Shown here piece by piece: positions 41,143 through 64,000 of a stretch of 64,000 nucleotides of DNA (positions are counted from its first letter, which is position 1; every line of letters begins with the position of its first letter). Position numbers and translations under genes: made by a program. Under the pieces are notes generated by a model. That model searched no databases. It saw nothing but the letters and a program-made list of their open reading frames with translations, and had not been told where the DNA came from. Source of the DNA: Eremomyces bilateralis CBS 781.70 (taxonomy: Eukaryota); the NCBI GenBank assembly GCA_010015585.1, contig ML975155.1; one strand, given 5' to 3'.

Positions 41143-43854
41143 TTAATGAAAGCCAAATCTGGATTCCATGCCCCACTCTCCCATTCCACCATGGAAGTGA
41201 TGATGCCCCTCATGCAGCATCCCTGGATCTGAGATGGTGGCTTCGGGGGTCATCACGCCTGAGTGCAGCCCCTCGACTGAGTCACCCATGGTAGTATACG
41301 GCATGAACATATTTGGGGCAGGCGAGCTGCTATGTGTGTGATGGAGTGGAGTGCCGGCGCCCGACGGACCAGACATGCCGTCAAGCATATGGTGTGAAGG
41401 GATATCCTGTGGCATCGAGTCCGAACCGCTGGCGGCAGAGACGGCGGACTTCGTATCCCAAGACATGGTCACGGCAGGCATGCCGAGATCCATGGAGGAT
41501 GGGAACATGGTGTCGTCCATGGGCGGAAATTCGCCCATGTCCATGTCCCCGACCGCAGCGGCGAAGCGGGAGGATGGAGAAAGAGGGTTGGAAGTAAACG
41601 ATTGGGGAGGGTCGTAAGTAAAGGACTGGAGGCTGTTGGAGGCGGAATGCATGGATTTGCTGGAGGCAGGTCCACGGAACATGATATTCGACAGAGCCGG
41701 GGAGGTAGGGCAAGTGCTAGAAGGGCTAAAGTTGAAGCCGTTAGGTAGGCCAGCATCCATGTGAGGACCTTGGTATGTAAGGTCGGGGACATCGGAGATT
41801 CCAAGCATGTTGTTGGATTCGGAGCGGCTCGGAGTGTGAGGCTGGGAAGTTGTTCCGCTGCCAAGGCTAGAAGTAGGACTTGGCACCGATCGCGGCCCCC
41901 GACCCAGGTATTGCTCAAACCCGACGCGAGCAGTCTTGAGACGCTTCTTAACCGGGCGAAGGAGTCGAGCCGATGCGAGGATTTCATCCCTAGCAGTGTT
42001 GTGCAATCGTGCGGCGAGGGATCCCAGTCTTGCAGCGGAACCGAGCAGAACCCGGGAATCTTTCGATTTGCTATCGGTTGCAAGTCTGCTGCGGAAGAGC
42101 TCCAAAGCACGTCCGCACGAATCTAATGCCAAGATAAACACGTCGGGGAATGAGGAGCGTTGGCGTGTCGAGCCGGATCGGATCATATCTGATCGAGAAC
42201 CCTCCGAGACCTTGGCAAGAATCGCCAGAAGGTCGTCCGCTGACTCGAGGAAGCAATTGATGGTCCTGTCGTTGATTGTCTTGTCCTGGGTTGGATTCTT
42301 AGACGCGGTAGTGCTACCGCGGGGGAAGAGGAAGTGAATGAGAATCGTGTGGTGCACAGTCAAGAGAAGCGCTTGAGAGGCACTATCGTCGACTTCCCGT
42401 TTCAGAACCCTGATGCTGTCAATGAAGACGCCGCGAGCACTGCTGCAGATGCTAGCGAAATCGGGACTGTGGTGAAGAGAAACAAGGCGGCGGAATCCTT
42501 GAAGAGGTCGCTCTTGCCAAGAACCAGAAGGGAGGTCGTCTATGCCATTGGGGTCTTGGGGGTAAAGTGCGTAGACGTGAGCAATCGCAGCGGAAACATG
42601 GCTCAAAGGCCACATTTCACGAATAACGCGTCTTTGAATCTGCAGGGTGGATAGGTTGTCCGAAGCTTCGTCGAGCTTGATAAGACTCGAAGAGGAATCG
42701 TCCATGGGTAGGAAAAGTTGGGGGAGGAGTCCCGTCAGTAGGTGGGAGAAGTTATGGCCCAGCTGCATAAATGACCAAAGAGTGAGGGAGAAAATTGTCC
42801 ACCAGAGGAAGGATAGAAGCTCCCTCTCGACCTCCCGAACGTCGATACCGTTGATGAGACTAGGTTCGAGCTGACGATCCTTCAAGCCGACGAGCATTTT
42901 GCTTGCTAGTGTTACATAAGAAGTCGATCTGCGGATGCTGGAGAAGCACAGTTCGTGCCAGCCAAAGAGGGTGAGTGCCTGAGCAGTGGAGAAGCCGCAA
43001 TCAGAGAGCTTTCTGTCTTGAAGTTGGCGCTGAGCAAACCGGAGGAGTCTGTGGCCCCGTTCATGCGCCGTTGAGTGGTCGTGGGCGAAGCTGGCATCCG
43101 CCAGAATAACGGCAAGGAGGGCGTCATCTTGAGTTTTATTTCGGACATCGCGAAGAAGGAGGGTTTTTGACACCAGAATGGAGAGTGGGTGAGTCGAGAA
43201 CCACACCTCAATCAACTGAGTGATCCTACGGCTGTCGTATTCAGTGAGAGGGTTTGGCTCGGCCTCGAAATAATCGATCATGGTAGTGGTTTGGTCGTTC
43301 GCCAGTGAATCGACGCAAAGTTTCGCGCCACCAGTTTGGATATGCTGGCATCCCAACCCGCCAAACTTCGCAGCGATCATGCCAACCAGGTCTTGGGTGA
43401 GTAATGATAGCCAGCCATCATAACTCAGTGATCCGGGCTTGGATATCTCAGAGCGGCCGGCGCTCTCTGTGCTGGACTCAGAAGCCCTTCGGTTGAAGCT
43501 CTCCATTTTCTCCCAACAATTGTCTCCATAGATCTTCTCTAGCTCTTGGCCGATGGTATCTCCCCTTCCAGAAGCGCCCTCGGCGCCCAGTATCCCCTCA
43601 GCTCCATTTGTGAACTCGGCATGTGAGGTAGGTGGTGAGGGGAAGAGTGACTGTGTGACAGGACTACCGTGGGCGAAGGTTGGATCACGGTCACCCGAGG
43701 TGTTGCGGCGTGACCTCGTCTCTGAGACGTCGTAGATGCAATCTTGGTTTCGTTCCTTGCAGGCTTCACATATACTGCTACCAGAGCACTTGATCTTGCG
43801 AGCCCGGCAGAAATGGCAGCTTCGTCGAAGGTTCTGACGCGGGAATGAAGACAT
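41143..43854 (-). CDS. Zn(II)2Cys6 transcription factor with fungal-specific TF middle region (903 aa, single exon)
   Basis: RRSCHFCRARKIKC....ICEACKERNQDC immediately after the ATG at 43854; Ser/Pro/Met-rich C-terminal tail. Confidence 0.9.
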   Translation of the reverse strand: MSSFPRQNLRRSCHFCRARKIKCSGSSICEACKERNQDCIYDVSETRSRRNTSGDRDPTFAHGSPVTQSLFPSPPTSHAEFTNGAEGILGAEGASGRGDTIGQELEKIYGDNCWEKMESFNRRASESSTESAGRSEISKPGSLSYDGWLSLLTQDLVGMIAAKFGGLGCQHIQTGGAKLCVDSLANDQTTTMIDYFEAEPNPLTEYDSRRITQLIEVWFSTHPLSILVSKTLLLRDVRNKTQDDALLAVILADASFAHDHSTAHERGHRLLRFAQRQLQDRKLSDCGFSTAQALTLFGWHELCFSSIRRSTSYVTLASKMLVGLKDRQLEPSLINGIDVREVERELLSFLWWTIFSLTLWSFMQLGHNFSHLLTGLLPQLFLPMDDSSSSLIKLDEASDNLSTLQIQRRVIREMWPLSHVSAAIAHVYALYPQDPNGIDDLPSGSWQERPLQGFRRLVSLHHSPDFASICSSARGVFIDSIRVLKREVDDSASQALLLTVHHTILIHFLFPRGSTTASKNPTQDKTINDRTINCFLESADDLLAILAKVSEGSRSDMIRSGSTRQRSSFPDVFILALDSCGRALELFRSRLATDSKSKDSRVLLGSAARLGSLAARLHNTARDEILASARLLRPVKKRLKTARVGFEQYLGRGPRSVPSPTSSLGSGTTSQPHTPSRSESNNMLGISDVPDLTYQGPHMDAGLPNGFNFSPSSTCPTSPALSNIMFRGPASSKSMHSASNSLQSFTYDPPQSFTSNPLSPSSRFAAAVGDMDMGEFPPMDDTMFPSSMDLGMPAVTMSWDTKSAVSAASGSDSMPQDIPSHHMLDGMSGPSGAGTPLHHTHSSSPAPNMFMPYTTMGDSVEGLHSGVMTPEATISDPGMLHEGHHHFHGGMGEWGMESRFGFH

Positions 43855-45988
43855 TGTGAAAGAGATATAGGAAATAGACGACAGGGGAAAATAGTCTACG
43901 AAATGAACAAGGAACGGAAGGGCATCACTTGAGTTGAAAGGAAGTGAGGGGAAATCTTGGTCGAGGCGATGGTGCAAAATAAATAATTCGAGTGGGATGG
44001 AATGTTATACTTAAATTCCAAGAACTCAGGCAGCCAAGGCCGAAAATGGAAAGACGGAAGGTTAAAGACATCGTATGGAGACATACCTCAGCTTCTGACT
44101 CCGGTTACACTGGATCTGACGTTGGAGGGGGACTAAACGGCCAGCATTGGTACAGAATGCTCTACAATCCTTCGATGCACCTAAGCCGGCGGGATGGCCA
44201 AAAGGAGGAAAGCGGTAGGTATGCTACCGGGAGCGTCGGACGGACAGTTCAGATCTCAGGATGATGAGCGCAGCCTCGTGTGCAGAGGCGCAGGGTCCGA
44301 TATCAAAATCCAGAATGACGGTAAACGACGACGTGTGTATTACGCACGGCCCCGGGCAGACTGTGCAAAGAGCTTTCCTAGCCATTGTGTGGATGGATGT
44401 CCGTCATTCGGGATCCGACGTATCAGGCTAGCCTTACATCAACTGGAGTCTGGAGATCGGTGGCTGACAAGAGTTGAAAACCACGGACCCTGCGCAATTC
44501 TGATACATAGTACCATGCAGGAGAGTTAAAGGTAGCAACATATGATCATCAGGTGGAGGTTCGCTGTGTTGGAACTTGGACTAGGACACAGGGGACTCGG
44601 GCCATTAGGTCTAACCGTGGAGCAGGGAGCGGTATCCTAATTCCCATGCAGGTTTGCCAAGCCGAGATTCGGTGGGTAGGTCGAGGGAACAGTCGAACGG
44701 GACACAAGTGAATGCGATGATAATACGGACAAGGGAAGGGATCATCCTACATGAAGCAATATCTGAAGAGGTGGAGAGTACTGGTACAAGGAAAGCGACG
44801 AGGCGAAGTCGCTAGGCGAGGGTACTCGAGGGAGTGAAGATCGGAACGGTTGGTGTTGTTAGGGCGGGGAGGTTCCACTCGGCTCGGTCCAAACGGTATT
44901 AATAACTACTTACTTAATACTAGAACTGTTGGTGTCACAGTCCACAGACATCATGCTGTGAGAGGAAGAGGCCGAGTATTCGGTGGATGGAAAATGGAGA
45001 GAAATGGAAATGGAAGGATTGACGTTCATTGTTTGTCTGAGGTGAAAATGCCAAGACCCGAGGCACATGACATGGTGACATGCGCAATGGCAAGGCGGAC
45101 AAGACACTCGGCAATGGACATTCTACAGTGTCCCAACTGTCAACATGATTTATTATTAATTCCAGCTTGACGAATTGCACGGAATAACTCAAGCTCAACT
45201 CCTGCTTGCGGTACTGGGATGGTGATAATTACAGAATCTCTGCAGGGTGCAGGATGAGGTAATTACGGTAGAGTCACTAATGCCACTAATTAATTACCCC
45301 GAACGTGGCTGTGCCGACACTAAGGGCCCGTATTACCGTTTCAACCCGACTCATATTCCCCATCAATACAATCTATCTATTCTTATCAAATGCTTTCGTC
45401 TTTTCGGAATATATTCTACTTTGATACATGTCGGAATTGATGGAACGGGGAATTACAAGATGGAAGTCTTCAATCCCCTCACCCTGGCTCCCCCCGCAAT
45501 AGAATTGCCCATGACGTGCGCGGAGATATTCCCCGCTATCCCCAATCCGGATTCCCTCCGAACCTTCGTGAGGTGCAGGCAATCCGACCAAGGCAATCAA
45601 CGGTCTCGTCGATCAAAGCCGAATATGCTGTGTCCGAGTCCTTGGATCAAAAAACTCTTGGGTTGGGAAAATGAGATGTCACGAGCTGAGAGCCTTGGTG
45701 GTCGTCGTCACCGCTTCTAAGACATTGTCACACAGCTTCTAAACACACCGAATGTTCCCTGGTCACACTCGCAACGTGTTATAGCAGGTAGTATCATGCA
45801 TGAGGGATTTTGAAATTAATTGATTTAGTGATGTCCTCATCTTCATATGCGTATTAGTTGAAGTACAGCGGTACTCCGCCCACTAAAAATTCTAAGAATG
45901 CTAAGAACGCAGCTAAAAGCGATCGCTATTAACAGCAGCGGACCCCAGTCATAATTTCATAAATCCCCTTCGAGTATCGATCGACAAA

Positions 45989-47303
45989 TCACCATTTCAC
46001 GTCCGCGAGGCCAACTCGGAGCTTCTCAAAGTCAAAGATAAGGTATTTGTCCATCACGAACTGATCCCCGAAATTCCCGTCCGACATCTCCCCGTATCCC
46101 AAAGTCCGCACGTTGAGCACACACGTCGCCTCGTCGATGTTCTCGACGTAGTATTTGGCGGGAATTTCCCATACTTTGTCATGGCCGCTGAAGGCGTACT
46201 TGATCGGTGGCAGGGTGTCCCTCTTGTTGCAGTCGACGCTGAAGAACGACTGGTTGCCGTTGTTCGGGGGCCACTGAAGCGTGATCGGCTCCGCCTGAGC
46301 CAAATCGACCAGATAGGCGTAACCGTCGATGGAGAGGGGTGCTCCGCGGCCGAAGCTGGCATGGTCGAAGATTGCCGCGCCCCCGGTCGTCTTGTTGATG
46401 GCCACCGGCTCATCGCCGATGCTCATCTGGGAAATATCCAGGGTCCAGTAGTTAATCACCTTAGGCTCCCAGATGAAATTTTGGTAGTTGACCCAATCCC
46501 AGATGGTGATATCGTACCAATAAATCTTCTTATCCTGGATGAGATCGCGGCGGTAGCCTCCCATGGTTTGGATGGCGTCGTATCCGTGGCAGCCCTCCTT
46601 TTCGACATCCGGGCTGCCGTCATAGCAGTAGTGGAATGCTGTCAGGCCAGTTGCCCAGGCGCCGGACTTCCATTGCTGGTAGAAGGTAGATTGATAGTCG
46701 GCTGGATACAAGTCAGCCTTGTGGTCTGAGGATACGGGACGAGCACTAGTTCCACTTACGTTTATCACCCTCAAACACGGGTGACATTCCATATACTCCG
46801 GCAAACGGGAAAGCCATTGCAGTACTATCAAACGAGAAGTCCGAAGCCTCGAACACGACAGTCGAAGTAGCAGACCCGACTGTCGTGACTTCTGTTGCAT
46901 GCTCAACCCACATATCCTCGTAGAAGAAGAAATGGTTTGGGTTCCAGTTCATGCGAGGATATCTGTCGGTGACATTGCGGAAAGTCTTCGACTCGGTTTG
47001 ATTATAATATGGTTGATCGTGGTTCAAGCACGCCCAGGTATTTTCCTCGTCCCCCATACATTTGGTAGTGAGCGTGTACATCTGGACCCAAGTCCAGTCG
47101 TTGAACATGGGGATGGTCTGTGGAGGGTTTCCAATCGTGACGTTCAGTAGGTAACCCGCCCAGGGGTGCCGGTCATGGGGGACATCATAGACACCAGGCC
47201 TTGACATCGGAATTTGGTTCTTCGAGACGGCTTCCAACTCCTGGGCCAACGAGGGCACCGCCCGTAGGGCCAAAACCAAGGCAAGTGTCTTCAGAACACT
47301 CAT
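45989..47303 (-). CDS. Secreted pepsin-fold (peptidase A1-like) protein with atypical catalytic motifs
   Basis: Signal peptide, YLLNVTIGNPPQT, GVYGMSP and FGDQFV..KYLIFDFEKLRVGLA. DWTW and DHAS replace the two D(T/S)G motifs. Intron at 46702-46759; 418 aa. Confidence 0.82.
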
Positions 47304-48248
47304 GTTGAATGTGAATACACTGAAATGAGTGTTGATTAAAAGGCCGTAGCCAGGACAGTCACGATGGAGGACAATATTGTTCCAAATCTTGTCTTGATGA
47401 CCCGATCATTATGGGGACCTGTCTTGTCTTTTGAATTGCACCATAGCGGAAAATAGTCATCTCAGTCACACCCGATCCCCCGCAGTGAGGTGGAAGGACC
47501 ACTAACTCTTCCGTGAAACACCAGAAATCGAGTTGAAACAAAATCCGTCAGGGATCTTCGACAATACGGAACTCCGGCACACGGCGGCGAGTCTGATCGA
47601 AGTTCAAGTATAATTGCGTCCAGATGGTCTTTACCAGATTGGGATCTCCATTTGCCAACGGAACGAGACCTTTGACCAATCATCGGGGAGCGAAGTGCTA
47701 AGCTTTGGACCCTAGAAGCTATCATTGGCCAATTCTCTAGGGAATATTGAGCTAGGCTAAATCTGGACTAGTGGCTGCAACATGTATGTCAGCATGGTTG
47801 AGCCGCACTAGAAGCGCGACTGGAACAGACGCGATCACGATGCTTCTAGACCTGAGGCAAATGAGGTACATGAAACTGCTGTCAAACCCACTTCATCTGT
47901 CTATCAAACAGCTTCAGCCACCACCTGAAGCTCTCCCATGAGCATCAGCTTCCGCAAGGAGTAGGACTCCCTGAGGATGGAGGAGGCGTGTCGATGAGAG
48001 CAGCTGTTTTGCCATCATGAGCGCAGCTCCAGCATCAGGCCCACTGTATAACTGAGGACGAGTTATAATGATATGATACCCAAAGGTTCGCAAGCTCTGA
48101 GGCTTGTTCGTCGACAACAGTTTTCGAGGTCTGTTAATCTTAACGTCAACTCTCACGAGACCTCAACGCCTCTCACTGATCCAGCTGGTCCTGGGTTTAT
48201 TGAGCATACTTTCGTTATTTCGATCCAGCTTCTTGTTATATCCTACCA

Positions 48249-49130
48249 ATGGAAACCGTCCTCCATATTCAAGGAGATCCCTCCTCTCACCTAACTCCCC
48301 TATTCCTCGTCCACGCCGTCTCCGGTCTTGCCCTGCCCTACCTTCGTCTTGGGTCAGTGACTCGGGGAGAGGAGTTCCTTGACGCTGGTCGCCCCGTCTA
48401 CACCATCGGTTCTCCCATCTACAACACTAAGCAGTATCGCCTTCCCTCCAGCTTGGATGAGCTTGCTCGCCAGTATGTGGCCCTACTGAAGTACCAACAG
48501 CCCGAGGGCCCCTACCTCCTTGGCGGCTGGTCCATGGGCGGGATGGTAGCAATGAAGATGGCCGACGTACTCCTTTCCTACGGCGAGGAAGTCCTGAAAG
48601 TCATCATGTTGGATTCACCTAATCCGGAGGCCACCCCGGCATTCCGCAGTCACCGCGAGTTCGAGACCATGCTCGGGAACGCCTACGGTGCGGTTGCTCA
48701 GCGTCTGGGCGTCGATGCCACCATGGAGCCAGACTTCGACTCGTCTGAAGACGACGACGAAGATCTTTTCCTCCAAGGGGGCGAGCTTCTGTCAAGGCTG
48801 CACCATCACGTTTCAAACGGCCTGCGCATAATCGCCAATGTCAAGCTAGGGACCATGTTCACCTGCAAGCAAACTTACGACGCGGTCCTGATCAAGTGCA
48901 CCAAAGCTCCTGCACAGCTATCTACCACTGGAAGCACCCCGAACCTCAGCTACGAGCGCAAGCTTTTCCAGAAATTTTCCTTCCGCGAGAAGAACATGCT
49001 GTGGGACCCCCGCGTTTTCCGGAGCTTCAGGTCCATTCCGATCCACGCGGACCACGATGGCATTCTCGATGACATGGCGGCGCCAGAGTTGACCAGAATC
49101 TTGCAATCTGTGCTGGAACAAACCGGTTGA
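48249..49130 (+). CDS. Free-standing thioesterase (PKS/NRPS TE-domain type alpha/beta hydrolase)
   Basis: PLFLVHAVSG, QPEGPYLLGGWSMGG (GxSxG), MLDS and DHDG (Ser-Asp-His triad candidates). Confidence 0.88.
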   Translation: METVLHIQGDPSSHLTPLFLVHAVSGLALPYLRLGSVTRGEEFLDAGRPVYTIGSPIYNTKQYRLPSSLDELARQYVALLKYQQPEGPYLLGGWSMGGMVAMKMADVLLSYGEEVLKVIMLDSPNPEATPAFRSHREFETMLGNAYGAVAQRLGVDATMEPDFDSSEDDDEDLFLQGGELLSRLHHHVSNGLRIIANVKLGTMFTCKQTYDAVLIKCTKAPAQLSTTGSTPNLSYERKLFQKFSFREKNMLWDPRVFRSFRSIPIHADHDGILDDMAAPELTRILQSVLEQTG

Positions 49131-50282
49131 ATATCCAAGTCATACAAAGAGAATCAGTTACGCTCGTTTAATGATCATCATACACGCTAGAACATGAATG
49201 GGGCTGGTGTGGGGGACCCTCCGTTGCATCATATCTTGTTCTGGGTTTCATTCATTAGGGTGTTTGGCGTGGGATAATTGACAGGCGACATGCATCAAGG
49301 TGGCTAGCTGGGCATGACAGCGCATTGTAGTTTTAGACGGAATAGACAGGACATTCAAAGGCTCCATCCAATCTATGACAAACAGAATGAAGTGATGAAT
49401 TAAATAATACGACATGCAGAATCGGAACCTTACCATAGAACGGAGAGACACGATGTGCAGAGAGGCTGACAATTGCGCTCGCTACCAAAATCCGACCTGC
49501 TTCCAGCTCTGAGCTCACCTCCTCTGTCGCACGGAGACCAGAAACCTGTGGCGAAAAGGCACCGTTTCATCTTCCACCAAACAGCAAAAGATCTGTCGAG
49601 TCAGCCAATGTTTCAATCGCCGCCACCTCTGGTTGGGTGGTGGAGCCGGGGTGTGCGATGTAATCGACGCGAGGGGCAAGGGGGTTGGTTCCGCAGGGCT
49701 GAAGAACATGGTGGACTCCGAACAACAACACCACGCCACAGAGCCACGATTTCGGAGAGTATACCCCATCCTCTGATCCTCGGGGATGGGTTTGGTTGCT
49801 TGGACCTTCACTGCGACGCTCATGAAATCTGGACCTGGATTTCTAATGTGGAGTACATCGATCAACGGTCCGCTCTATTTTACCAGGCATTCTATGTTTG
49901 GATACCTTATTGGTATAGCAGGGACTGCTTTTGATGAAGTTCTAGTTCCGGAAGCCCTGGAGCCGCATCTCCATACCGTTAGTTTTTGCCTCTATGGAAC
50001 GCTCACATCATGCACATATGGATATCTGAGTCGGGCTCCGCGATCGCCATCCAACACCTCCGAAACTGGGCTCCACGATCCGTTCGTGTGCGCAACCACC
50101 TGGTCAACGTGATATTCGCTTCCTAGAGACTTGGAAGAATGTCAAGTTCTTAAAAACTGACTTCGCTGGCGTCGTTGTCAAATCATGTTGCCATTCGATA
50201 TCAGCTTTTCCTTCTAGACTTCGGTTCGAACATCATTAGGCAGGTCCTATTTTGTAGCGCTTGCGACACATTCTTTGCCAAT

Positions 50283-52195
50283 ATGACGCCTTCTAAGGGT
50301 CGCTTTTCTTTTCTCTTACCACTTACGTGCTTGATTGGCTCCGTGGCTGCGGCGCCACTGGAAGAGTTCGTGACCAGACAGAGTAACCTGCTGGCCTGTG
50401 TTCGCTCTGTTTTTGGAAACACTTCAGATGCTCGAATAGTCGGACCCACGGATCCTACCTTTACAGATGCGAGACTCGGCGAGAAGATCCAGTATGAATT
50501 AGAGAACGAACTCGACAGGAATGAGCGGAAGCTAACTTTTGGATAGATTCGATGAATTCCCCTCGTTGATTGTTTTCGCCGAAGATGTTTCCGAGGTCCC
50601 TGCTCTTGTCAATTGCGCTCAGAAATCAGGAATTCGTGCCGTTCCCCGGACCGGCGGTCACCAGTAAGTCTAGTCTTTCTTTTCTCTCGACAATGGGATC
50701 TGGATTATGCGGTGGTATTGATGCCTGAATACTAAACCCCAGGTTTGGGGGCTCAGAGTGAGGGGTCAATATAATACCTATTTCAGCCCACTACTTCCAT
50801 CTCGTATCAAGATAGCGAAACCTGACATTCGAACAGCTTTGAAGCCTACTCCACGTTGACAGATACAATGACTATTGACATCAGTCACATTAACTACGTA
50901 CAAGTTTCCGAAGATCGAAACACTGCCGTTGTCGGAGCCGGAATTCGACTCGGTGCGCTTTATAACGTCCTCTGGAAACACGAAAGGTCGTTCAATGGCG
51001 GCATTTGTCCAACAGTCGGTCTATCCGGCTTCTTGTCTAGTGGAGGATTCAGCAATCAAATGCGCGACATGGGACTCGGGATCGACTACATTCAATCCGC
51101 CAAGGTTGTCCTTGCAAATGGCCAGCTTGTCACCGCTTCAGCTTCCGAAAACCCGGACCTGTTCTGGGCAGTCAAGGGCGGCGGTGGCGGTACGTATGGA
51201 ATTGTTGTGGAGTACGTCCTGGAGGTCCTGGAGTATCCGCGATCTAGCATGGTTCTGATCAACTGGAACGAGACCGATACCAATACGGTTCGCTATGATG
51301 TTGCGAAGCGATTCCTGGATTGGGCACCAAGGCAAGATCGCCGATTCACTTCCCAGGTCAACGTCTATGGCACAACTGTCCAGGTCGTTGGGCAGTTCCT
51401 CAATGCCACTGGCGAGGAACTGACCGCGCTGATCAATGATTCGGGACTCCTCACCATCGGGAAACCAGAGCCGATTATTGACGGTGGCTGCAATCAACTC
51501 AATTCCCGTCTCTTCGGATATACCACGTTCGACTGCCAAGCTGATAACGAGGTCGACCCTCTCATTACCAACGTGGTTCCTCAAGCCTTCGAACCAGTCG
51601 GCAACTACCCTCGGTTCGGGTATAATGATGTTCCAGCGGACCCTGCTGCTCCAGTGGCTCCAGCCTGGCCACGCTTCTGGCGTATTGCCAAGTCATTCAT
51701 CGTCCAAAAGGACAACCTCCTTCCAGATGACGCACTGAGGAATGTCATTGACCGGATTGCTCAGCTCCCGCCGGAAGCTAGCGCTTGGGGAGAGTGGCAT
51801 GCGTGGAACTTGTCCTCCACGGCAGATGGAAGCGATGCCTTCGCCTGGAGAGATCAAGCATATGCCCATCTCGAGTTCCAGATCCGTGGCTCCGACGATA
51901 TGGACGTACAGAACGGATATCATGACTGGATGGCTGATTTGGAAGGCTACCTCCGGCCTATAGTTGGGTAAGGCTGAGCACCCGAATTTGTAACAGATCC
52001 AAGACTAATGTCCCTCGCAGTCCGGCTTCATACACTGGCTACGCCGACTCCAAGATCTCAGTGAATCCATTGGAATCCTACTTCGGCAACAACGTTTGCA
52101 AGCTCATTAATGTCAAGAACCAATATGATCCAGGCAACTTCTTCCAAAATCCGGCTAGCATTCCAGTGCGTGCGGAGAATGGGTTGACGTGCTAG
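50283..52195 (+). CDS. Secreted FAD-linked oxidase, berberine-bridge-enzyme-like
   Basis: Signal peptide, RTGGH (His for covalent FAD), GGICPTVG (Cys for bicovalent FAD), NPDLFWAVKGGGGGTYGIV and C-terminal YFGNN..KL..VK..YDP.NFF. Introns at 50492-50546, 50664-50836 and 51968-52020. Confidence 0.9.
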
Positions 52196-53489
52196 ATGTC
52201 TCGGGAAGCATTGCATGGCGTTGGTTAGTGGTTGAGTTGGCATAGACGCATATTTCCTTGCATATTTCCTGTACCGATGTACATTACGTTTTTTGTATAT
52301 TCAAAACCATCCAATCACAGTAGGATTCTACTAGTGTCACGAATATCCACTGCACGAATAAATTCCGCAACACTGCAGTGCATTCAAGATTTCCTCCGTG
52401 TTGCAAAGGGAGGCTCGGCGGCAGCTATCGGACAGCAGCTTCGACTAACAGAGCATCATCGGCAGGGTTCCCAGATGACGTAGGCGATGCAGGTGCCATG
52501 TAGAAAAGAAGGAGAGGTGAATGTTCGATAGGAATCTGGATGATTGCGGCTACCAAGGCAGGATACCGGCTGGATGGAATTCGGAAAGTTGTGGCATCGT
52601 GGCAAGAACTCAAGACAGAGTTTCACAGATGCAGGTACCGGATGAACGTTTCAGAATATTCTGAAACGATGTGGCTGAGGGAGATCACAGTTCTCGGAGT
52701 CCGAGTCTCATCGGGCCTTTTCGTTGTTGTTATTATTGAGGCCGTGAAGGAGCGAAGTCAAGATTGAGGCTCGAATCGCGGTGGTCAATGCGCAGTGGGG
52801 AAATCTGGATTCTGGTGGCTGGTGCATAACTGGCATGGGTGGCACAGATAATGTTAATTTGCACCTTCTATTTATGAAATCCGACCAGACGTGCCAGAGT
52901 CTAAATGCACGTGATATCGGCTCTCAGCTCAATCCGTCCAACTTCTTTCCTGGTCTTGTTGATCTCTTCACGTTCAGTTCCCAGAGTCCCGAATGCCCCG
53001 AGGATTGGCGCAAACTCGCATTAAGCTTCAATGCTCCATCTCCGACCTATCGCAGACATGGCTACGTGTCCGTATTCCCCCAAATTGACTTATCGCAATT
53101 TGCAAGGACCCAAGGGCCCAAGGGCCAAGCACCACGACGTGTCAGCCTTGCCCCCATCAAACTACATCCGAACCACTCCAACAAACGAACCCTCTGCCGT
53201 TGAATGCTACCCTAGCTCGTATTTCCTCACTCGCCCCGGTCCCAGAATCATTACAATGTCACAAAATGGTTACAAGAGTCCAAGTCAACTTCGTACACAG
53301 ACACCTAAGTCGGGCGATTAGATTGTCGATGCTAACCCTAAGCGAACCACCTGGCCAATACTACCAACGCCTGTCGTTACAATGTCCGTCCACGATGTGG
53401 TATCCGCCCATGCACCGGTCTATCCATACCCAACGCCGATATATTGCAACATAGTACAACGGAGAATTTAATATCGTCAAAGTCATTGC

Positions 53490-54727
53490 TCAGAATAGCT
53501 CCTGCATCGAGCTACTTAGTCTGTCGGTAGACTCTTTCAAGGACGCTTTGAACTCTCCGCGGACAAATGTTGTCAGTGCGCCGGAGATGTGGCTGCCGTG
53601 CATCCGTTGGCGGGAGTAGACGTCAACAAAACGATCCACAAGGCTACCCATGCGCTTTAATTGGCGTAGGATGAGTTGCATCTTGATGCTCTCCTCATCC
53701 TCTTCGTCGAGGCGATAGGATCCTAGTGTAAAGGCGGCATCCATGTCTCCCTGGTTAAAGAGCGACTCTTGAGATGACCCGGATACGGAAGAGGAAGAAG
53801 AACACGAGGAGCTCCGTTGAGCTGTAACGGTGCGATAGGTTCGCAGAACCTTGGATATTATTAATGACAGGAGGAGAGCCAGCTCCGGGTCTGCCGAGCA
53901 TTCGCAGTCCACCAACTGAGATATGGCATCGATGGCTTTGCGATTGCGGTCCAGAATCCGATCCGCGCTCAGCGTAGATTGGGCCAACTCCGCAACACCA
54001 TAGAGGTTTTGCAGAGCAGTGATGCCGAGGTTCATGCAATCATGGTCCTTCGAGCATCGTTCGGGCAACTCTGTTGTCGGAATGACGTCGGGGAATGGCT
54101 TGAAGCCGTCGTCGAAGCTCTCATCAGAGAGAGGTGGTGTTGGGAAGTCGTCCATGGGACCCATTCCAGAATGGACCGACGCGGCAGAACCATCGAAATC
54201 GAGGTACATATCCATGAGATACCGATCAGGAATTGCCATGGGCGGTGGTGGAAACATGCCCATTGAAGTCTGCGGGGAGAGGTGCAGATCTTCTGGCGGG
54301 AAGAACAGCGGCTGTTGAGGGTTCATTGTGTGATCACCAAAACCGCTCACGTGCATCAACTCTGAGGGGCCGTTAGCTCTGCCCTCGCTATATATTTCTG
54401 TTTTTCTATGGGGGGTGGCTTACCAGGTGTGCAACTGCCGTAACTGCTGTCTTGGCGAACGAAGCCGTCTGTGAGGCCCTGCTGTTGCAGGGCGGCCTTT
54501 CTTTTGGATGCTGGCGGCTTTCCTATCCTCCGAGAAGGGCTGTAGTTGCACGGAAGCTTGAGGCTGGAGCAACGAAGGCAACTAGGCCTCTCCTTTCCGC
54601 ACTTGACCTTTCGTTTGGAGCAAAGGTCGCAGGAGTCCTTGACCTTTCGGCGAGGTGGTTTGCCGTTGGCCCGAATGGGCTTGTCAATGGGAATTGATTG
54701 GCCTTCTGATGATGTTGGAGCAGACAT
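53490..54727 (-). CDS. AflR-like Zn(II)2Cys6 pathway-specific transcription factor
   Basis: KVKDSCDLCSKRKVKCGKERPSCLRC...PC.YSPSRR.G, and an AflR-type C-terminal region (NRKAI..I..LVDCECS...ALLL.LII.KVL..Y; LGSYRLD). Intron at 54362-54423. Confidence 0.88.
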
Positions 54728-56972: not shown

Positions 56973-58346
56973 TTACCACAACTCAGCCAATACGGACTCA
57001 GCATTATATCCATAAATCCATTGAGAATTCATGGTCGGCCCCATCCACTTCAACAGCGCCCAGATCACCCATTCCTTGATGGACTGTTGGATAACCGATT
57101 TGCTGGTCTTCCGAAGGTTTCCATTCTTCGTATTGAAGTCTTGGATCTTCTGGAGACGTGTGATTCGGTGCTGCTCCCAGCTCCGAACCGTCTGGTCACG
57201 AAGTTCCTGGTCGAAACTCGAATCATAAAGACGGGAGAAGAGGTATCCAAGTGTCTCCGCATCCTCGAGCGAGGTTGCGCCACCTTGACCGCCCTGTATG
57301 CTCGATTAGCAACTGTTCCGGTTCGCGGTCAGAGCCTGTATGACGGAAACATACCGATGGCGGCATTGCGTGGGCAGCATCACCAATTACGATGACGCGC
57401 TTCAATGGAGAAGTCCAGTTGGTTCCAGGGGAAACTTGGTAAAACCTGTGTGACTTAGTATTAGTGGCGGTGTGAGACCCGGAACATTGAACACTTACGG
57501 CCAGTTGGTCAGAGATTCCGGAGCGGCACGCTCGCACAGCGCCTTCACGATTGGGGGCCATCGTGAACTGCTCGTCAAAAACCGCTCTTTCACCATCTTG
57601 GAAAGAGTGGCCTTGTCCGCATCGAACGCAACCCATTCTTCCTTGGACTTTTCCTCCGTCTCAAATGTGGCGAAGTAGCTGATGCTCTTACCGGCGCTCG
57701 ATGCAGGCATGATTGCGAAGGAGCCGGTGGCACCGAACAGGAAACACGGCAGATGCAGCCCTTGCAGGTCCACATCGGCGAGGTCGCTCATCTCGAACGT
57801 ACCGGAGATTCCGGTCAGGCCCTGAAACTCGGGCTTCGCGTGTGGCCGGACGAAGGGGCGGACCTTGGAGTGGATGCCGTCGCAACCAACAACGTAGTCC
57901 GCCGTAACGGTTTCTCCGTCCTCGAACTCGATGGTTGCGCTGGAGTCGTCCTCGCTCGTAACGCCGACGCATTTCTTCTCATAGTAGATCTCAACCCCGA
58001 CGCGGCGGCACTGTTTTATCAGTGCGTCGCGCAGCTCCGAGCGCTGGATTCGCAGAGCAGGGAAGTTATAGATCTTGTAACTGCCGTTGTAAACCCGGGC
58101 AAGCTCGACGCCTTGGCCGTTGGTGAAGGCCACGGTCTCAAACGCATAGCCAATGTTGCGAACTTGGTCATAGACACCGGCGTGGTCGAGTACTCGAAGA
58201 GCATTAGGAGAGAGGGCGATATTGCCGCCTGCGGCAAAGTCTTTTGCTTCCCGATCGTAGATCACGCAACTGATCCCATGCTTCTGAAGACTGAGCGCAA
58301 GCGTGGCACCAGCCAAGCCTCCACCACAGATTGCGACTTGGACCAT
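56973..58346 (-). CDS. FAD-dependent monooxygenase (group A flavoprotein hydroxylase)
   Basis: VAICGGGLAG, VGCDGIHS and IGDAAHAMPPS|GGQGG...LED. Introns at 57446-57498 and 57294-57354. Confidence 0.9.
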
Positions 58347-58494
58347 TTTCGCGCAAATGGATAATTATTCAGTAAGTGTTGAAAGAAGGAAATGCAAGTG
58401 AAATTGGAAGGAAATGCGCTATTGCGGCCAAATTGGTGAGTATCGCGATATGTTTATGCCATGGTCGAAGTGATATATACAATCATGTCCCGTT

Positions 58495-58505
58495 TCGACG
58501 ACCGA
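58495..58505. promoter_or_regulatory. Candidate AflR-type site TCG-N5-CGA in the divergent FMO/PKS promoter
   Basis: TCGACGACCGA about 150 bp upstream of the FMO ATG. A single 6-bp-specified match could be chance. Confidence 0.35.
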
Positions 58506-59395
58506 TTCGGACAGCACGGTCTCCGCTCGTGAACGGCCATCATGTTTCATCTTTCAGCAATCGCTTCGAATGATGCAAGACATGATTTTGGACGGAATCA
58601 CAATTGCAGCCCTCTGCGGTACTGCCGTGATGTGGCGGCTGTGTACTGACCCTGGTCCGCATGTCGATCACTCCACGGGCTCCGAAGTAAATTTTCCACC
58701 TTGAGTATGAATGGAACTTGACTAGCTCAGCCTTACAGATAACAACCCAACGGGTAATAATCTGGAGAACCAACACCGATCCACATGGGAATACCCGCTC
58801 TTGTTGTAACCAGGTCCGCTGAGAGTCTGTCATTGGGTGCGATATCCGCACCTTGTCCCGTCTTGTTCTCATCGCTACTCATGTCCTGTGTTTTAGAAGT
58901 CAAATCATTTCATTGTCTAGTAAAGTCTTGCCTTATTGTCCTCCAATATGCATTCAATGTCTCATAGTATACAGTCGGATTGGCAGCATTGTCTTTGGAG
59001 GTTACGGAGTTCGATTCTATCAGAACGGCGCCCATATGTGCACATAATTGAAGTCGGTTCTGCCGTCCGCAAATCTGCGGAACCGGGATCCCGAACCGAC
59101 GAACTACTCCATTTGTTGTCCTGCCCGATACTGGGGTTCAGGATTATGGTCCTGTGGGGGTAATTAATTCAGTGGAGTCTGGCCATGCGACTTGAGAGTT
59201 ATTCTTATCTGGTGCTGGACTTGCTTGACCCTATACATACACGCCACTGCTCCCATCCATTTCCTTCCAAGATATTCCACATTGAACTGATTTCTTATTC
59301 CCTATTATCTATTCCCCATCTCTCAACGCAGGCCGACATCAACTTGTTAATGGTTTGACACCGTAATACTGTCGTTTAGATCAACTTGTTCAACC

Positions 59396-62300
59396 ATGTC
59401 TTCCCAATCTTCAGCGGCTTCTTCTCAAGCCTCGCTTCAAAATACCATGAACCCCGACCCATCAGTTATTATTGGCATGGCTTGTCGTGTGCCTGGCGCG
59501 ACAACCCCCAGTAAGCTATGGGACAACATCGCTGAGAGGAGAGACCTCCAATCGAAGATGCCCGCCGATCGATTCAATGTCGATGCCTTTTTCCATCCCA
59601 ATGGAGCCCATAAGGGAACAGTCAGTATTGCCTACACCATAGACCTGACACAGCTACTGATCTTCACCAGATGAACGCCCGATATGGCTACTTCCTTGAA
59701 CAAGATCTCGGCATGTTCGATGCCGGTTTCTTTGGTATCTCTGGCAAAGAAGCCGAAGCCATGGATCCCCAGCAACGATTGCTTCTAGAGGTGGTGTACG
59801 AGGCATTGGAGAATGCTGGCATCACTCTGGATGAAATCAGTGGTTCCTTGACTTCGGTCTTCTGCGGCAGCTTTACCAACGACTACATGGCAACGACCGT
59901 CAAGGATCTTGAATACTACCCCCAATACTCGGTCACCGGAACCGGAAATTCCATTTTGAGCAATCGTATTTCTTATTTCTATAACCTTCATGGAGCGAGC
60001 GTCACGTGCGACACCGCATGTTCCTCTTCCCTCATTGCCCTCCACTGGGGCAATGGCACTCTTCAAAATCGAGAGGCCGACATTTCCATCGTCGTCGGCT
60101 CCGCCCTTCATTACGACATGAACATCTACCAGATGATGACGGACCTGAGCATGCTCAGCACCGACGGGCGCTCTCGTGCGTTTGATAACGGTGCGAGCGG
60201 CTATGTCCGTGGTGAAGGCATTTGCGCGACGGTGCTCAAGCGCCGGAGCGACGCGGTTGCCAGCGGCGATTCCATTCGTGCCATCGTGCGGGGCACCATG
60301 GCTAATCACGATGGTCGCAAGGCGGGCATTACCCTTCCCAATCCGATAGCGCAGGAACAGCTCATTCGGCATACCTATAAAATCGCTGGGCTGGACCCTG
60401 CAGACACCCAATATTTCGAAGCTCACGGTACCGGTACCAAGGCTGGTGACCCCCGTGAGACCTCTGCTATCGGAGCGGTCTTCGCTCCTAGCAGAGAAGA
60501 GCCTCTCTATGTTGGCTCCGTCAAGACCAATGTCGGCCATCTTGAGGGTGCTTCCGGCCTTGCCGGTATCATCAAGACTGTTATGGGACTTGAGAAGCGC
60601 AAGATCCCACCGAACATGCTCTTCAAGAACCCCAACCCGGAAATCAAGTTCGACGAGTGGAAGATCCGGGTGCCAACTTCAATGGTCGATTGGCCGGAGA
60701 AGAACGGTGTCCGCCGTGCTTCTATCAATTCGTTCGGCTACGGTGGTACAAACGCACACGTCATCCTGGAAGCTTACACGGAACCCGAAACCACCATTCC
60801 TCGTCAGATCTTGCCTGGAGCTCTGGCGTCTATGGTGGCTAGCCGTCCATATCTCATCCCGCTTACCTCCCACATTGAGAAAGCCGGCAAGCTCCATATC
60901 TCCGCTCTCACGGAATATCTTGATGCGCGCGAAGATGCCAACGTCGCCGATCTCGCATTCTCGCTCAGCAGCCGCCGCACCATGCACCCCTTCCGCTCAT
61001 TCGCGATTGGACACGACCGAGCATCAGTTACCAGCGATATGACCAACCCTCAACCCCTTGCCAAGTGGACGGCTGCCGAGTCTGGCCGAACCAGAATTGG
61101 TATGGTCTTCACCGGCCAGGGTGCTCAGCACTTTGCGATGGGCCGTGAACTCATCCAGAAGTCTCCGCTCTTCAAGCAGTCTCTCGAGAAGTGTGATACT
61201 GTCCTCCAAAGCCTGCCAGATGCGCCCAAGTGGTTAGTCATTGAGGAAATGACCAAGTCCAAGGAGGATTCCCGCGTCACCCAGACTGAATTCTCTCAGC
61301 CTCTGTGTACTGCTCTTCAGTTGGCTATCGTGGACCTCCTCAATTCTTGGGGCATCAAGCCGGCCGCCACCGTTGGACATTCATCCGGCGAAATGGCCGC
61401 GGCTTATGCTGCTGGTATCCTCACCTTTGAAGGTGCCATCATTGCTGCCTACTACCGTGGCCTCTACATGTCCAATACCTCTGCCAACACTGTTAAAGTT
61501 TCTGGTGGAATGATGGCTATCGGCCTGACCGAACCCCAGGCCAAGGCTGAACTGCAAGCGTTTGAGGGTCGCCTTGCCATTGCAGCAATCAACTCCCCTT
61601 CCAGCATCACCATTTCTGGTGATGAGGATGCCATCCTGGAACTCAAGAACACTCTTGTTGAACGCAAAGTCTTCGCTCGCCAGCTCCAGGTCGCTCAGGC
61701 TTTCCACTCTCACCACATGTTCCCGCTTGCCCCCGCTTACGAACGGGCATTGAACTCCTGCCCGCAATTTAAGCCGCAGCCCCCGACTTGCCGAATGTTT
61801 TCGTCTGTCACTGCTCGCTTGGCGGATTACACCCAAATGGGTGCGGCTTACTGGGCAGCAAACATGACTGGGACTGTCCGATTCTACGAAGCCTTGACTG
61901 GCATCTTGCTTAATGACAACGATGAGCAAAACGTCGATATCCTTCTCGAGATCGGAGCTCATGCTGCTCTCAAGGGTCCCTCTCGCCAGGGTGTCACCTC
62001 CTTGAAGCTGGATCTGCCATACCTCGGATCCCTCACTCGTGGTGTGCCGGACTATACTAGCCTTCTCCAATGCGCTGGCCAACTCTTCTCGCTCGGCTAT
62101 CCAGTGGACCTGGTTGCAGTCAACAAGGATCAGTACCTTTCTGATGGTGCTGTGGTCCAAGCAGACACCGGCAAGAAGCAGACCGACTTGCCAACCTACT
62201 CCTGGGACCACAACCGCTACTGGTGCGAAACTCGCTTCACCAAGGGACATCGCCTCCGACCATACCGCCATACCATCCTGGGTAGCCCCATCACCGGGTC

Positions 62301-64000
62301 CATTGATAACCGCCCTCGCTGGAGGAACTTCCTTCGCCCTGGCGAGATCCCGTGGCTCAATGAGCACGTTGTTGATGGCAAGATCATCTTCCCTGGTGCT
62401 GGCTACATCAGCATGGCCATCGAAGGTGCCCTTCGGTTGAAAGGCGGTGTTGAGAGCGTGAAGGCTATCCGCATGAAGGACATTATGGTCAAGTCTGCCC
62501 TAATCGTTAGCACTGCTGACATGGGTACCGAAGTCCTCCTTGAGATGAAGCCGGTCACTACGTCTGCGAAGAGTCGATCTGCTGAATGGTACGAATTCGG
62601 TGTCTATTCCTATGATGAGAATGAGCGCTGCTCTGAGCACTGCCATGGTCTCATTGCCGTTGATAAGGGCGCCGCCGCTCCAATTGCGCCGATCAAGAAT
62701 TATCCGGCGCTTGACGCTTTGCGTCTCGAGAGCAACCGCAGCCAGATGCCAAGTTCCTTCTATGCTCATTTGAATGACCTCGGATTGCAGTATGGTGAGA
62801 ACTTCCGTCTTGTCTCCGGCAATGTTGAGAGCGGCCCTGGATACGCTTATGGGCCCATCACCTACGATCCAACCGCTGTCCTCTCAGCAGAGGAGTTCGA
62901 CAAGACTGTTTTGCATCCATCGCTCCTCGATTCCACTTTCCACGTGATCTTTAGTGCGATCGAGAGCCGTTTGGGACGTGCTTTGGATGAGGCATACGTT
63001 CCGTCCTTCATCCGCAGCCTTGACATTTCTGGCTCCTTCGTCGACTCTGTCAGCGACCGCAGCACACAGGAGTTCAATATAGTCTCCTTCACTGAGCTGC
63101 CGACCCACCGCGTCGCCGTCAGCGACCTGGTTCTGACCCAGGGCGACCATCTCGCCCTTGAAATGCAAGGCCTTGAGGTCACTGCTTTGGGCACTGGTGT
63201 CAACGATGGCCAGGAGGGCCGCTCGCTGTTCTTCCGCCAACGCTGGCAGCCGTCCTTCGACTCACTCACCTCGTCTATAAACACTCCTTCTTTGCGATCT
63301 CTTGCCAGCGTCGTGGATGTTTTCGTGCACCAGCACCCTGACACTCGCATCTTGACCTTCTCCGCCAACTCCGAGCGCGTCACCGAAGTCCTCAAGTACC
63401 TTGGCACTGCTGCGCATGAGAGGCGACGATTCAAGTGCCTTGACATCGCTCAGTCATCTGCCAACGGTGATGCTGCGAAGTACGAAGAGATCAAAAACAA
63501 GAGCGGCGGCCTAGTTGATATCCGTGAGCCGAATACTGAAGAGCTTTACGACCTCGTCATTATCAGCGACGGGTCTGGTGTTGACCCGCTCCCGCATATG
63601 AAAGATAACGCTGTCGTCATCTACGATGGCGCCAACTTGCCGACCAACCCTGACCTCGAACAAGTCTTCTATAAGGACGGAATCCTTTCCGCTTACAGGC
63701 GCCCTCGCACTGCCGTGGCTCCTGGAGACTTGACTGTCATTGTGTCGTCCCTTCTCAGCAAGCGCGTTAGCTCGATCATCTCCGCCATAAAGACTAGCGC
63801 TCCAGCATCTGTCAACACCATGACCTTCGCTGAACTGTCCAAGAGCTCTCAGCCAATCACTAAGGATGCCATTGTCCTCTCCAGCTTCGATGAGGGCATT
63901 GACGACGCTGATACATTCGCTGGAATCAAGAAACTCCTGGGTGAGGTTCAGAAAAACGTCGTCTGGGTCACCGAAGGTGCGGTTATGGAGTCCTCCAATC
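59396..64000 (+). CDS. Highly reducing iterative type I polyketide synthase (KS-AT-DH-pseudoMT-...), 3' end outside window
   Basis: Intron at 59621-59670, then an open frame to the window end. [62 protein letters not shown]. Degenerate MT-like segment near 63330. Confidence 0.95.

Follow-up and report, generated by a model that had tools for sequence, protein, structure and literature searches.

The seven consecutive genes that follow MAM3 (CNNM/CBS) in the 64,000-nucleotide stretch of Eremomyces DNA analysed here (the window) probably represent a reduced and rewired cluster of the pyranonigrin clade (Ia-A), in which a 3-acyl tetramic acid would be released by a thioesterase (TE) and then undergo non-canonical oxidation. 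This reading draws on the whole-length identity of the core synthase to PynA and PytA, its nesting in the KS-AT tree, orthology of two further genes to PytH and a known thioesterase, conserved linkage and the published roles of the Pyn proteins. It also draws on the lack of an ortholog of the relatives' P450 or flavin monooxygenase (FMO) in the genome, on promoter palindromes, the splicing of 7 of 8 introns and the precedent of NoppC. The ring-forming enzymes are lost and the pocket of the adenylation (A) domain is altered, so that the product is probably an undescribed relative of the pyranonigrins; the pathway type is already known, and no new kind of system is present here. The seven genes are:

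41143..43854, minus strand: Zn2Cys6 transcription factor (TF), 903 aa, one exon (PF00172+PF04082); putative PynR-like regulator by conserved linkage
45989..47303, minus strand: pepsin-fold protein, 418 aa, exons 47303-46760 and 46701-45989; predicted dehydratase of PytH/PynH type
48249..49130, plus strand: stand-alone thioesterase, 293 aa (PF00975); predicted PynI type
50283..52195, plus strand: BBE-like FAD oxidase, 543 aa, 4 exons (PF01565+PF08031)
53490..54727, minus strand: AflR-like Zn2Cys6 TF, 391 aa, 2 exons (PF00172+PF08493)
56973..58346, minus strand: group A flavin monooxygenase, 419 aa, 3 exons (PF01494)
59396..64000, plus strand: 5' part of the PKS-NRPS gene, the rest of which runs to G000:C7:1058071 (~window position 71149)

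Their order is as described in the earlier note, and the Pfam domains agree (Zn_clus+Fungal_trans, Asp, Thioesterase, FAD_binding_4+BBE, Zn_clus+AflR, FAD_binding_3 and KS/AT/DH). The six tailoring and TF gene models are open frames with canonical GT-AG introns and the core gene model agrees with the full-length 3,885-aa record P0225; judged by their frames, all seven genes are real and intact. No tailoring gene was found in the 70 kb read to the right of the PKS-NRPS gene, where the first recognisable genes (histidyl-tRNA synthetase, a TRP/FLC channel and others) are all housekeeping genes. By this gene content the PKS-NRPS gene is the predicted end of the cluster, and the "right half" formerly placed outside the window reduces to the remainder of that gene. 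Within the gaps, all 107 of 107 intergenic frames of at least 55 aa lacked a Pfam match above the curated cut-off (four matches were sub-threshold), and 569 frames of relatives, compared with the window and loci L002-L004, disclosed no hidden or broken P450, methyltransferase or MFS gene, all matches but two falling on known genes, and those two being marginal and located outside the cluster. Gene set and gap frames together thus hold no methyltransferase, transporter or P450, no trans-ER or Knoevenagelase, and no frame of the type of the N-methyltransferase PynC or the reductase PynE. The genome assembly consists of 95 contigs; on one of them (C24) a gene that matches the NAD-binding protein of a relative at 42% sits alone, with no satellite cluster around it.

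The core protein comprises 3,885 aa, its gene extending 7.1 kb past the window, and has the architecture KS-AT-DH-psiKR-ER-KR-ACP-C-A-T-R with no MT match. It had been taken for a highly reducing PKS (HR-PKS) without a release module, a view overturned by the domains C, A, T and R, encoded in frame to the right of the window, which make it a PKS-NRPS hybrid. Identity is 51.9% over 3,901 aa to PynA (pyranonigrin E), 47.4% to PytA and 47.0% to An18c0020, and the KS-AT tree places the protein inside a 34-member group with these three (support 0.99), a position which, in a tree without outgroup from other clades, shows nesting among known Ia-A members only. The KS, AT, DH, KR, ACP, C, A and T motifs are intact and the ER nucleotide motif HSAAGGVG is identical to that of PynA. 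The R domain is degenerate in the same way as in PynA, with TGAESYIG and with YFKTR in place of YxxxK, the normal SDR motif. A cis ER together with the lack of trans-ER and Knoevenagelase is a mark of clade Ia-A (Table 1 of PMC7421883), and the core synthase is classed, from its sequence, as a PKS-NRPS of the pyranonigrin clade.

Three of the smaller genes point to the same family. The pepsin-fold protein shares 45% identity over 396 aa with PytH (Q0CZG7), and its structural model (pLDDT 89.6) matches proteinase A in Foldseek (E 3e-22). Both Asp of the catalytic positions are kept, in DWT and DHA rather than DTG (DWT aligning to the DTG of cathepsin D), and are invariant in 32 of 32 aligned family proteins; the protein lacks the two D-T/S-G motifs of a proteolytic A1 aspartic protease, and is predicted to be of the dehydratase type, not a proteolytic pepsin. 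The thioesterase has an intact triad (Ser of GWSMG, Asp122, His269) and is 38% identical to an A. niger thioesterase seven locus numbers from members of the pynA cluster, which suggests a PynI-type releasing enzyme. The BBE oxidase carries the His of RTGGH and the Cys of GICPTVG, which we take to indicate the bicovalent FAD type, and is 52-58% identical to the BBE oxidases of the related loci L011, L012 and L015. By linkage it would be of PynB type, the labels PynB, PynD, PynG and PynR being derived here from gene content and linkage in these three loci and not from those sequences themselves. The same loci show no PKS-NRPS within 10 kb of their pepsin gene.

The suggestion that one pathway combines a trans-acting thioesterase with two tailoring enzymes of the secretory pathway is borne out by the co-occurrence of homologs: three long loci of relatives carry TE, pepsin, BBE and TF genes together, and 19 of 47 pepsin-like matches lie on contigs of equal size to a TE or PKS-NRPS match, which was taken as co-occurrence. 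(An alignment scan gave 7 of 325 candidates; a first scan of metagenomes, with a single exon as query, confirmed 0 of 26.) As for the two signal peptides that had been claimed, the pepsin-fold and BBE proteins do have hydrophobic N-termini, a property defined by a Kyte-Doolittle window only. The gene combination, held to be uncharacterised, proved to be that of pyranonigrin E (pyn), namely PKS-NRPS, TE, aspartic-protease-fold dehydratase, FAD oxidase, FMO and Zn2Cys6 TF, as far as the available text of PMC7345139, PMC7902601 and PMC8362661 describes it. This identification follows from the identity to PynA and PytA, the likeness to PytH, the TE match and the presence of the BBE oxidase and left TF in related clusters; the match extends to four to five of the seven genes and excludes the FMO and the AflR-like TF.

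The pocket of the A domain reads DLTYFALVQK, a combination that recurs in no other of 68 homologs and departs at positions 239 and 322 (Val239 -> Thr, Thr322 -> Leu) from the pattern of 54 of 67 homologs, the Ser-activating PynA and PytA being among the comparators. In the A-domain tree the terminal branch of the Eremomyces sequence is the longest of 68, and Botryosphaeriales members of Ia-A that lack FMO and P450 group with it (support 0.96). Amino-acid specificity cannot be read from the pocket letters here; in a joint estimate serine leads, somewhat short of an even chance, followed at a much lower and equal level by threonine and by the sum of other residues, and slightly below these by alanine. 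A rival reading, which we rate as rather unlikely, is a substrate switch: alanine or some other small residue without a hydroxyl is loaded by the A domain, the C5 methyl is turned into the exo-methylene by the BBE oxidase without help, and the pepsin-fold dehydratase has become redundant. The unique pocket with its Thr322 -> Leu change, the long branch and a pocket deviation comparable to that of the Gly-loading An18 group agree with it, as does the conversion by PynB of a reduced form back to the exo-methylene form (in the accessible parts of PMC7902601, with the direction from PMC7345139). It counts against the main reading that the pocket change could remove the substrate of the pepsin-fold enzyme. 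Against the switch, the gene of the pepsin-fold protein remains intact and both Asp are present; in deviation from its family it is no higher than rank 4 of 32, and it keeps two candidate TF sites. Val239 -> Thr could restore a hydroxyl contact for serine.

The FMO is only 23-26% identical to the FMOs of L011 and L012, which share 64% with each other, and is predicted to belong to a different subfamily rather than to be their ortholog; the identity of >40% expected of a PynG/PyrC-type FMO was not reached against proxy sequences from related loci, used in place of PynG, and neither a closer protein nor an ortholog of the relatives' FMO was found in the Eremomyces genome. Its closest relative is an uncharacterised Colletotrichum protein (65% over exon 1), none of its ten near relatives bears a characterised name, and an Atlas search gave the general family only. 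Nor did two proxy queries and a family search find in the genome an ortholog of the relatives' PynD/PyrB-type P450. With both enzymes missing, the fused gamma-pyrone of pyranonigrins would not be completed. That a canonical pyranonigrin is nevertheless made, because unlinked enzymes, or the FMO of the cluster with a promiscuous P450, complete its gamma-pyrone, is improbable: P450s are numerous in the genome (102 matches at exon level, with 92 of 110 candidates scored), which is assembled in 95 contigs, but the best match to the relatives' P450 reaches about 29% (E 1e-8) against 41-59% (E 1e-53 or better) among the relatives themselves, and the P450 nearest to the cluster is unrelated and 46 kb off.

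The left TF is 32-42% identical over about 690 aa to the TFs of L011, L012 and L015. The palindrome TCCGY-N6-RCGGA is enriched in cluster promoters of the relatives (9 exact matches in 68 kb against 0.22 expected, and 0 for the reversed control) and recurs in those of Eremomyces. With a position weight matrix (PWM) trained on relatives only, each of the five best-scoring sites of the window is located in a promoter of the cluster; together these promoters make up 11.8% of the window:

47572..47663, unstranded: candidate PynR-type sites 47572 and 47646 in the pepsin/TE divergent promoter (PWM ranks 5 and 2)
49519..49536, unstranded: candidate PynR-type site upstream of the BBE gene (PWM rank 4)
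58521..59082, unstranded: candidate PynR-type sites 58521 and 59065 in the FMO/PKS-NRPS divergent promoter (PWM ranks 1 and 3)

Site 59065 is an exact match. When one mismatch is allowed, the window alone shows no enrichment of the palindrome (10 against 7.8 expected), and promoters of the window were part of the set in which its shape was first noticed; we regard it as a candidate PynR site. The AflR-like TF falls in AflR clusters of the Atlas at 0.97, has no match in L009-L015 and only weak PWM sites upstream. AflR-type sites follow the pattern TCGN5CGA, of which 8 of 20 lie in 19.4 of the 64 kb, no enrichment. The membership of this TF in the cluster is uncertain. Neither FMO nor AflR-like TF has a counterpart in related loci, and both could be passengers.

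In a public run (X1) that is not registered as RNA, the contigs of which are nevertheless spliced, 7 of 8 predicted introns are removed: 3 of 3 in the BBE gene, 2 of 2 in the FMO gene, that of the AflR-like TF and, on a 12,400-nt contig, the first of the PKS-NRPS. The left TF is covered by a 3,091-nt contig. The joint of the pepsin intron was not seen and the pepsin/TE stretch is thinly covered, which is not counted as silence, and contig depth cannot rank the genes. A decaying cluster, with tailoring genes lost, no selected product, and FMO and AflR-like TF as unrelated insertions, would account for the absence of several family genes and for a core protein above the median deviation from its family in most domains; seven intact frames, splicing in four intron-bearing genes and retained promoter sites make it quite improbable. 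Reductive release, with an N-acyl amino alcohol set free by the R domain and oxidised to an N-acyl amino acid by the BBE oxidase, has a precedent in the PKS-NRPS and BBE pair SapA/SapB (as described in the available part of PMC11375781) and the required domain is present, but this domain has the degenerate motifs of PynA and a PynI-type thioesterase with intact triad is kept, so that we consider it very unlikely. An HR-PKS whose free or esterified polyketide is released by a trans thioesterase, suggested by the KS-AT-DH portion inside the window, is rejected by the sequence and has a negligible probability, since the same frame continues past the ACP into the NRPS module (C, A, T, R) and both the 3,885-aa record and the 12.4-kb spliced contig fit a hybrid.

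For the reduced pyranonigrin-clade pathway we propose the following course, in the light of the roles of PynA, I, H, B, G, D and C as given in the accessible text of PMC7902601 and PMC7345139. By orthology, the megasynthase would build a beta-ketoacyl chain, unbranched and saturated in part, and couple it to a small L-amino acid; the thioesterase would then set the chain free through a Dieckmann cyclisation that yields an N-H 3-acyl tetramic acid. Two further steps would take place in the cell wall or the secretory pathway: dehydration of the side chain of the amino acid by the pepsin-fold protein, giving an exocyclic alkene, and regeneration of this alkene from its reduced form by the BBE oxidase. 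The unrelated FMO, which shares its promoter with the megasynthase gene, would carry out the one oxygenation; our single likeliest guess, a tentative one, is an epoxidation of the side chain closing to a dihydro-pyrano[2,3-c]pyrrole. The left TF would drive the cluster through TCCG-N8-CGGA sites. It is possible, if somewhat unlikely, that the amino acid was switched and the PynG/PynD pair replaced by a newly recruited FMO already in the PynR regulon.

With the class corrected to a PKS-NRPS of the pyranonigrin clade, a gene set that seemed to be unknown now yields a prediction that can be tested. With one synthase and four enzymes the cluster is suited to heterologous reconstruction, and its product would reveal the output of a clade Ia-A pathway that lacks the P450/FMO pair. 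The two pocket changes allow the specificity of fungal A domains to be probed in a natural variant, and TCCGY-N6-RCGGA, should PynR-type factors bind it, would provide a way to delimit such clusters. Should amino-acid switch and FMO recruitment both be true, the cluster would hold a tetramic-acid scaffold not yet described, a natural switch of A-domain specificity and the first candidate PynR element for awakening many silent Ia-A clusters.

Among known systems, pyn of Aspergillus niger (PynA, B, C, D, E, G, H, I, R) shares a 52% identical PKS-NRPS of the same domain set and motifs, the PynI-type TE, the aspartic-protease-fold dehydratase, the FAD oxidase and a Zn2Cys6 regulator; by contrast, the Eremomyces cluster is without P450, N-methyltransferase, PynE-type reductase and transporter, has an FMO of another subfamily and an extra AflR-like TF, and differs from the pyn pocket DLVYLATVQK. 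The pyt cluster of Aspergillus terreus (pyranterreones), compared through PytA and PytH only, shares its PKS-NRPS (47%) and pepsin-fold protein (45%) and has the pocket DLVYYATVQK. The pyr/pyv/An18 group (pyranonigrin A, pyranoviolin A) shares a PKS-NRPS (47% to An18c0020) and a proposed release by a trans hydrolase, but loads Gly (DLGYLCCVQK), possesses a P450 and has a changed ER motif; no pepsin-fold protein appears in the gene table of pyv. The same loss of FMO and P450 within the same clade is found in Neofusicoccum, Macrophomina, Penicillium vulpinum, Pseudogymnoascus and Oidiodendron (Minami et al. 2020), though with the pocket DLAYIAQVQK; this state applies to 5 of 72 evaluable published members, for which we found no products described. 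Finally, nopp/cpa/ttc (olumilides, curvupallides, triticones), likened from text and not from sequence, have other core enzymes and another tailoring set, and share the route from a PKS-NRPS tetramic acid via an epoxide to a pyrano[2,3-c]pyrrole, a closure for which NoppC alone suffices in the nopp pathway.

The window corresponds to G000:C7:986923-1050922 (G000 being the assembly). The seven genes lie where the earlier note had placed them, each with its expected Pfam family. Six have open spliced frames, of 903 aa (left Zn2Cys6 transcription factor, TF), 418 aa (pepsin-fold protein), 293 aa (thioesterase, TE), 543 aa (BBE oxidase), 391 aa (AflR-like TF) and 419 aa (FMO); their introns are of the GT-AG type and have branch-point motifs. 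The core gene, previously read as an HR-PKS, is instead a PKS-NRPS hybrid, since its frame runs past the window edge through psiKR, ER, KR, ACP, condensation (C), adenylation (A), thiolation (T) and reductase (R) domains to a stop at C7:1058071; it is matched by the 3,885-aa database protein P0225, and a methyltransferase domain found no match in it. Nor does the right half supposed to lie beyond the window exist: the next recognisable genes are a histidyl-tRNA synthetase, a TRP/FLC channel and other housekeeping genes, and the cluster therefore comprises seven genes over ~30 kb. None of 107 intergenic frames (at least 55 aa) reached the Pfam cut-off. Just past the PKS-NRPS (G000:C7:1058700-1059000; ~8700-9000 of the adjoining stretch L002), short broken frames with 0 Pfam matches resemble a TPR-repeat remnant on visual inspection. 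On the housekeeping side, a transketolase-fold gene (window 35713-36951), similar to branched-chain keto acid dehydrogenase E1-beta, adjoins MAM3. The window holds 440 N bases.

P0225 shares 51.9% identity over 3,901 aa with the record of PynA (P0350), the synthase of the pyranonigrin E pathway in Aspergillus niger, 47.4% with PytA (pyranterreones) and 47.0% with An18c0020. A midpoint-rooted tree built from the KS-AT region of 67 sequences, from which other hybrid clades were left out, places it inside a 34-member group with these three (support 0.99), its exact sister having a support of 0.12. The KS, AT, DH, KR and ACP motifs and the C motif HHIAVD are intact, and the ER motif is that of PynA. 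In P0350 itself, a stretch of ~12 residues that other A. niger members have downstream of the KS active-site Cys is missing, probably through an intron-annotation difference.

The A-domain pocket, whose positions follow GrsA numbering anchored on motifs, reads DLTYFALVQK and occurs in no other of the 68 sequences (near-duplicates included, 55 bacterial rows dropped). Among 67 homologs, two of them with gaps, 54 carry DLVY[YFL]ATVQK, including the Ser-loading PynA and PytA; the An18 group, described in the accessible parts of PMC7345139 and PMC7575713 as loading Gly, has DLGYLCCVQK. The window sequence forms the longest terminal branch of the A-domain tree (rank 1/68; ranks 3, 5 and 8 for other regions) and ranks 5/68 in pocket deviation. 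Because Ala301 is retained, the loaded amino acid, judged from sequence, likely still bears a side chain; the strongest rival reading is a switch to Ala. In the tree the window sequence stands beside Botryosphaeriales hybrids that are likewise without FMO and P450, a grouping that may reflect long-branch attraction. Three of these PynA-clade hybrids (P0306, P0316, P0340) have the pocket DLAYIAQVQK and are another variant subgroup; for Neofusicoccum and Macrophomina, the available table of PMC7421883 marks both FMO and P450 as absent.

Other cluster genes travel together elsewhere. By an assembly-level proxy (equal length of the longest contig), drawing on 119 listed of 250 TE matches and, from 120 listed of 530 synthase matches, on the 64 that are fungal, 19 of 47 non-self pepsin-like matches co-occur with a TE (13) or PKS-NRPS (8) match, and the named cases, spanning four fungal classes, have consecutive locus tags. 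In Hirsutella the pepsin-TE pair (P0026/P0180) and the PKS-NRPS match (P0252) sit on separate contigs, which may point to a split cluster. A metagenome scan of 325 candidates gave 7 loci, i.e. three distinct long and two short ones (L012-L014 counted as one). Each of the three long loci has genes homologous to the TE (39-43%), the pepsin-fold protein (39-58% by segment), the BBE oxidase (52-58%) and the left TF (32-42%), which makes the left TF the conserved regulator; the AflR-like TF has no match in these related loci (L009-L015). Orthology holds for four to five cluster genes.

The canonical tailoring pair is absent from the cluster. The long loci L011 and L012 contain an MFS transporter, a P450 and an FMO; in none of the three long loci is a synthase visible less than 10 kb from the pepsin gene, and the PynD-/PynG-type label of their P450 and FMO is therefore read from gene content. 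Their FMOs are 64% identical mutually and 23-26% to the window FMO, and no closer match turned up in G000 (6 matches, best 27%). The window FMO comes closest to an uncharacterised protein of Colletotrichum (65% over exon 1), and none of 10 checked relatives bears a characterised name. A canonical product completed in trans is the next rival: a P450 family search gave 102 matches in G000 (92 of 110 candidates scored), the nearest 46 kb away. The relatives' P450s (41-59% identical to each other), however, reach only 24-32% against 30 G000 P450 loci, and fragments from the two related loci gave 0 matches and a best match of E 1e-8; with these queries their ortholog was not found in the 95-contig assembly. 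A P450 gene ~5 kb left of the window (G000:C7:980790-982265) is unrelated to the relatives' one. Elsewhere, a lone NAD(P)H-binding protein (G000:C24:349991-350701), 42% identical to one in the long locus L015, sits amid unrelated genes; the match crosses a stop, perhaps an intron. Loss of FMO/P450 is not unique to this cluster: the accessible supplement 2 of PMC7421883 lists 79 rows for clade Ia-A, of which 7 are insufficient, 5 are scored as without both and 5 as without P450 only, taking 'x' as absent, in agreement with its Table 1.

Regarding release, the TE, in which the catalytic Ser, Asp and His are all preserved, is 38% identical to an A. niger TE located seven locus numbers away from members of the pynA cluster. 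An unlikely rival, SapA/SapB-type reductive release (available text of PMC11375781), would draw on the R domain, which is present with the degenerate motifs common to PynA and PytA. PytH and the pepsin-fold protein share 45% identity; the model of the latter (pLDDT 89.6) structurally matches proteinase A and renin, and both catalytic-position aspartates are invariant in 32/32 aligned sequences, in the context DWT and DHA/DNA/DYA, not DTG. PytH-like proteins are common in Trichoderma (P0041, P0043, P0044, P0047, P0048), with no Trichoderma TE or PKS-NRPS among the matches listed; in that genus the dehydratase-like protein may act in a different pathway.

Cluster decay, another unlikely rival, could account for the absent pair but sits poorly with the open frames and with the public sequencing run X1, in which 7 of 8 predicted introns in window 41000-60900 are spliced as predicted (BBE 3, AflR-like 1, FMO 2, PKS-NRPS 1; the pepsin-fold joint was not seen) and the synthase contig measures 12,400 nt. 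The run is evidence of transcription in a single study, not of co-regulation. A further X1 joint (56091-56245, + strand, 153-nt, GT-AG) in the gap between AflR-like TF and FMO, which has no Pfam match in any frame, is possibly a spliced antisense or non-coding transcript. When gapped words were searched across 11 promoter regions, CCG-N8-CGG words came up, the shape being first noticed in a set that included the window promoters. In 68 kb of sequence from relatives, the exact palindrome TCCGY-N6-RCGGA is present 9 times vs 0.22 expected at the G000 rate (87 sites), its reversed pattern 0 times. With a matrix built on 14 non-coding sites from relatives only, the five best window sites (58521, 47646, 59065, 49519, 47572) are all in cluster promoters, as are 4/4 sites scoring at least 12 (0.22 expected); the AflR-like gene has weak sites only, and simply counting sites with one mismatch across the window gives a number expected by chance. 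The partly accessible literature searched gave no paper on a PynR site.

In the pyranonigrin E pathway, as far as the available text of PMC7345139, PMC7902601 and PMC8362661 describes it, PynA assembles malonyl units and L-Ser into a tetramic acid, release needing PynI; PynC adds a methyl group, the gamma-pyrone is formed by PynG and PynD, PynH removes water from the serine arm, and PynE/PynB convert the alkene to its reduced form and back. By analogy, the PKS-NRPS here would make an unbranched, partly saturated acyl chain, joined as amide to a small amino acid and released by a TE-driven Dieckmann reaction. The pepsin-fold and BBE enzymes would then form an exocyclic alkene, placed outside the cytosol because both have hydrophobic N-termini and FmqD (available text of PMC11375781) is a secreted BBE precedent. 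The new FMO would contribute one oxygenation; our lead guess is pyrano-pyrrole closure through an epoxide, which a single enzyme performs in the nopp pathway (accessible part of PMC12340962).

Up to the tetramic acid the cluster would thus work like the pyranonigrin E pathway, and by its synthase sequence it belongs to clade Ia-A, but it differs from pyranonigrin producers in the FMO/P450 pair. The literature within reach, with subscription papers mostly outside its scope (related work: PMC7575713, PMC8403587, PMC6915911, PMC4979870, PMC12918583, PMC12368960, each available in part), yielded neither a characterised P450-less PynA-type cluster nor the pocket DLTYFALVQK. The cluster is a variant of the already known pyranonigrin-type pathway.
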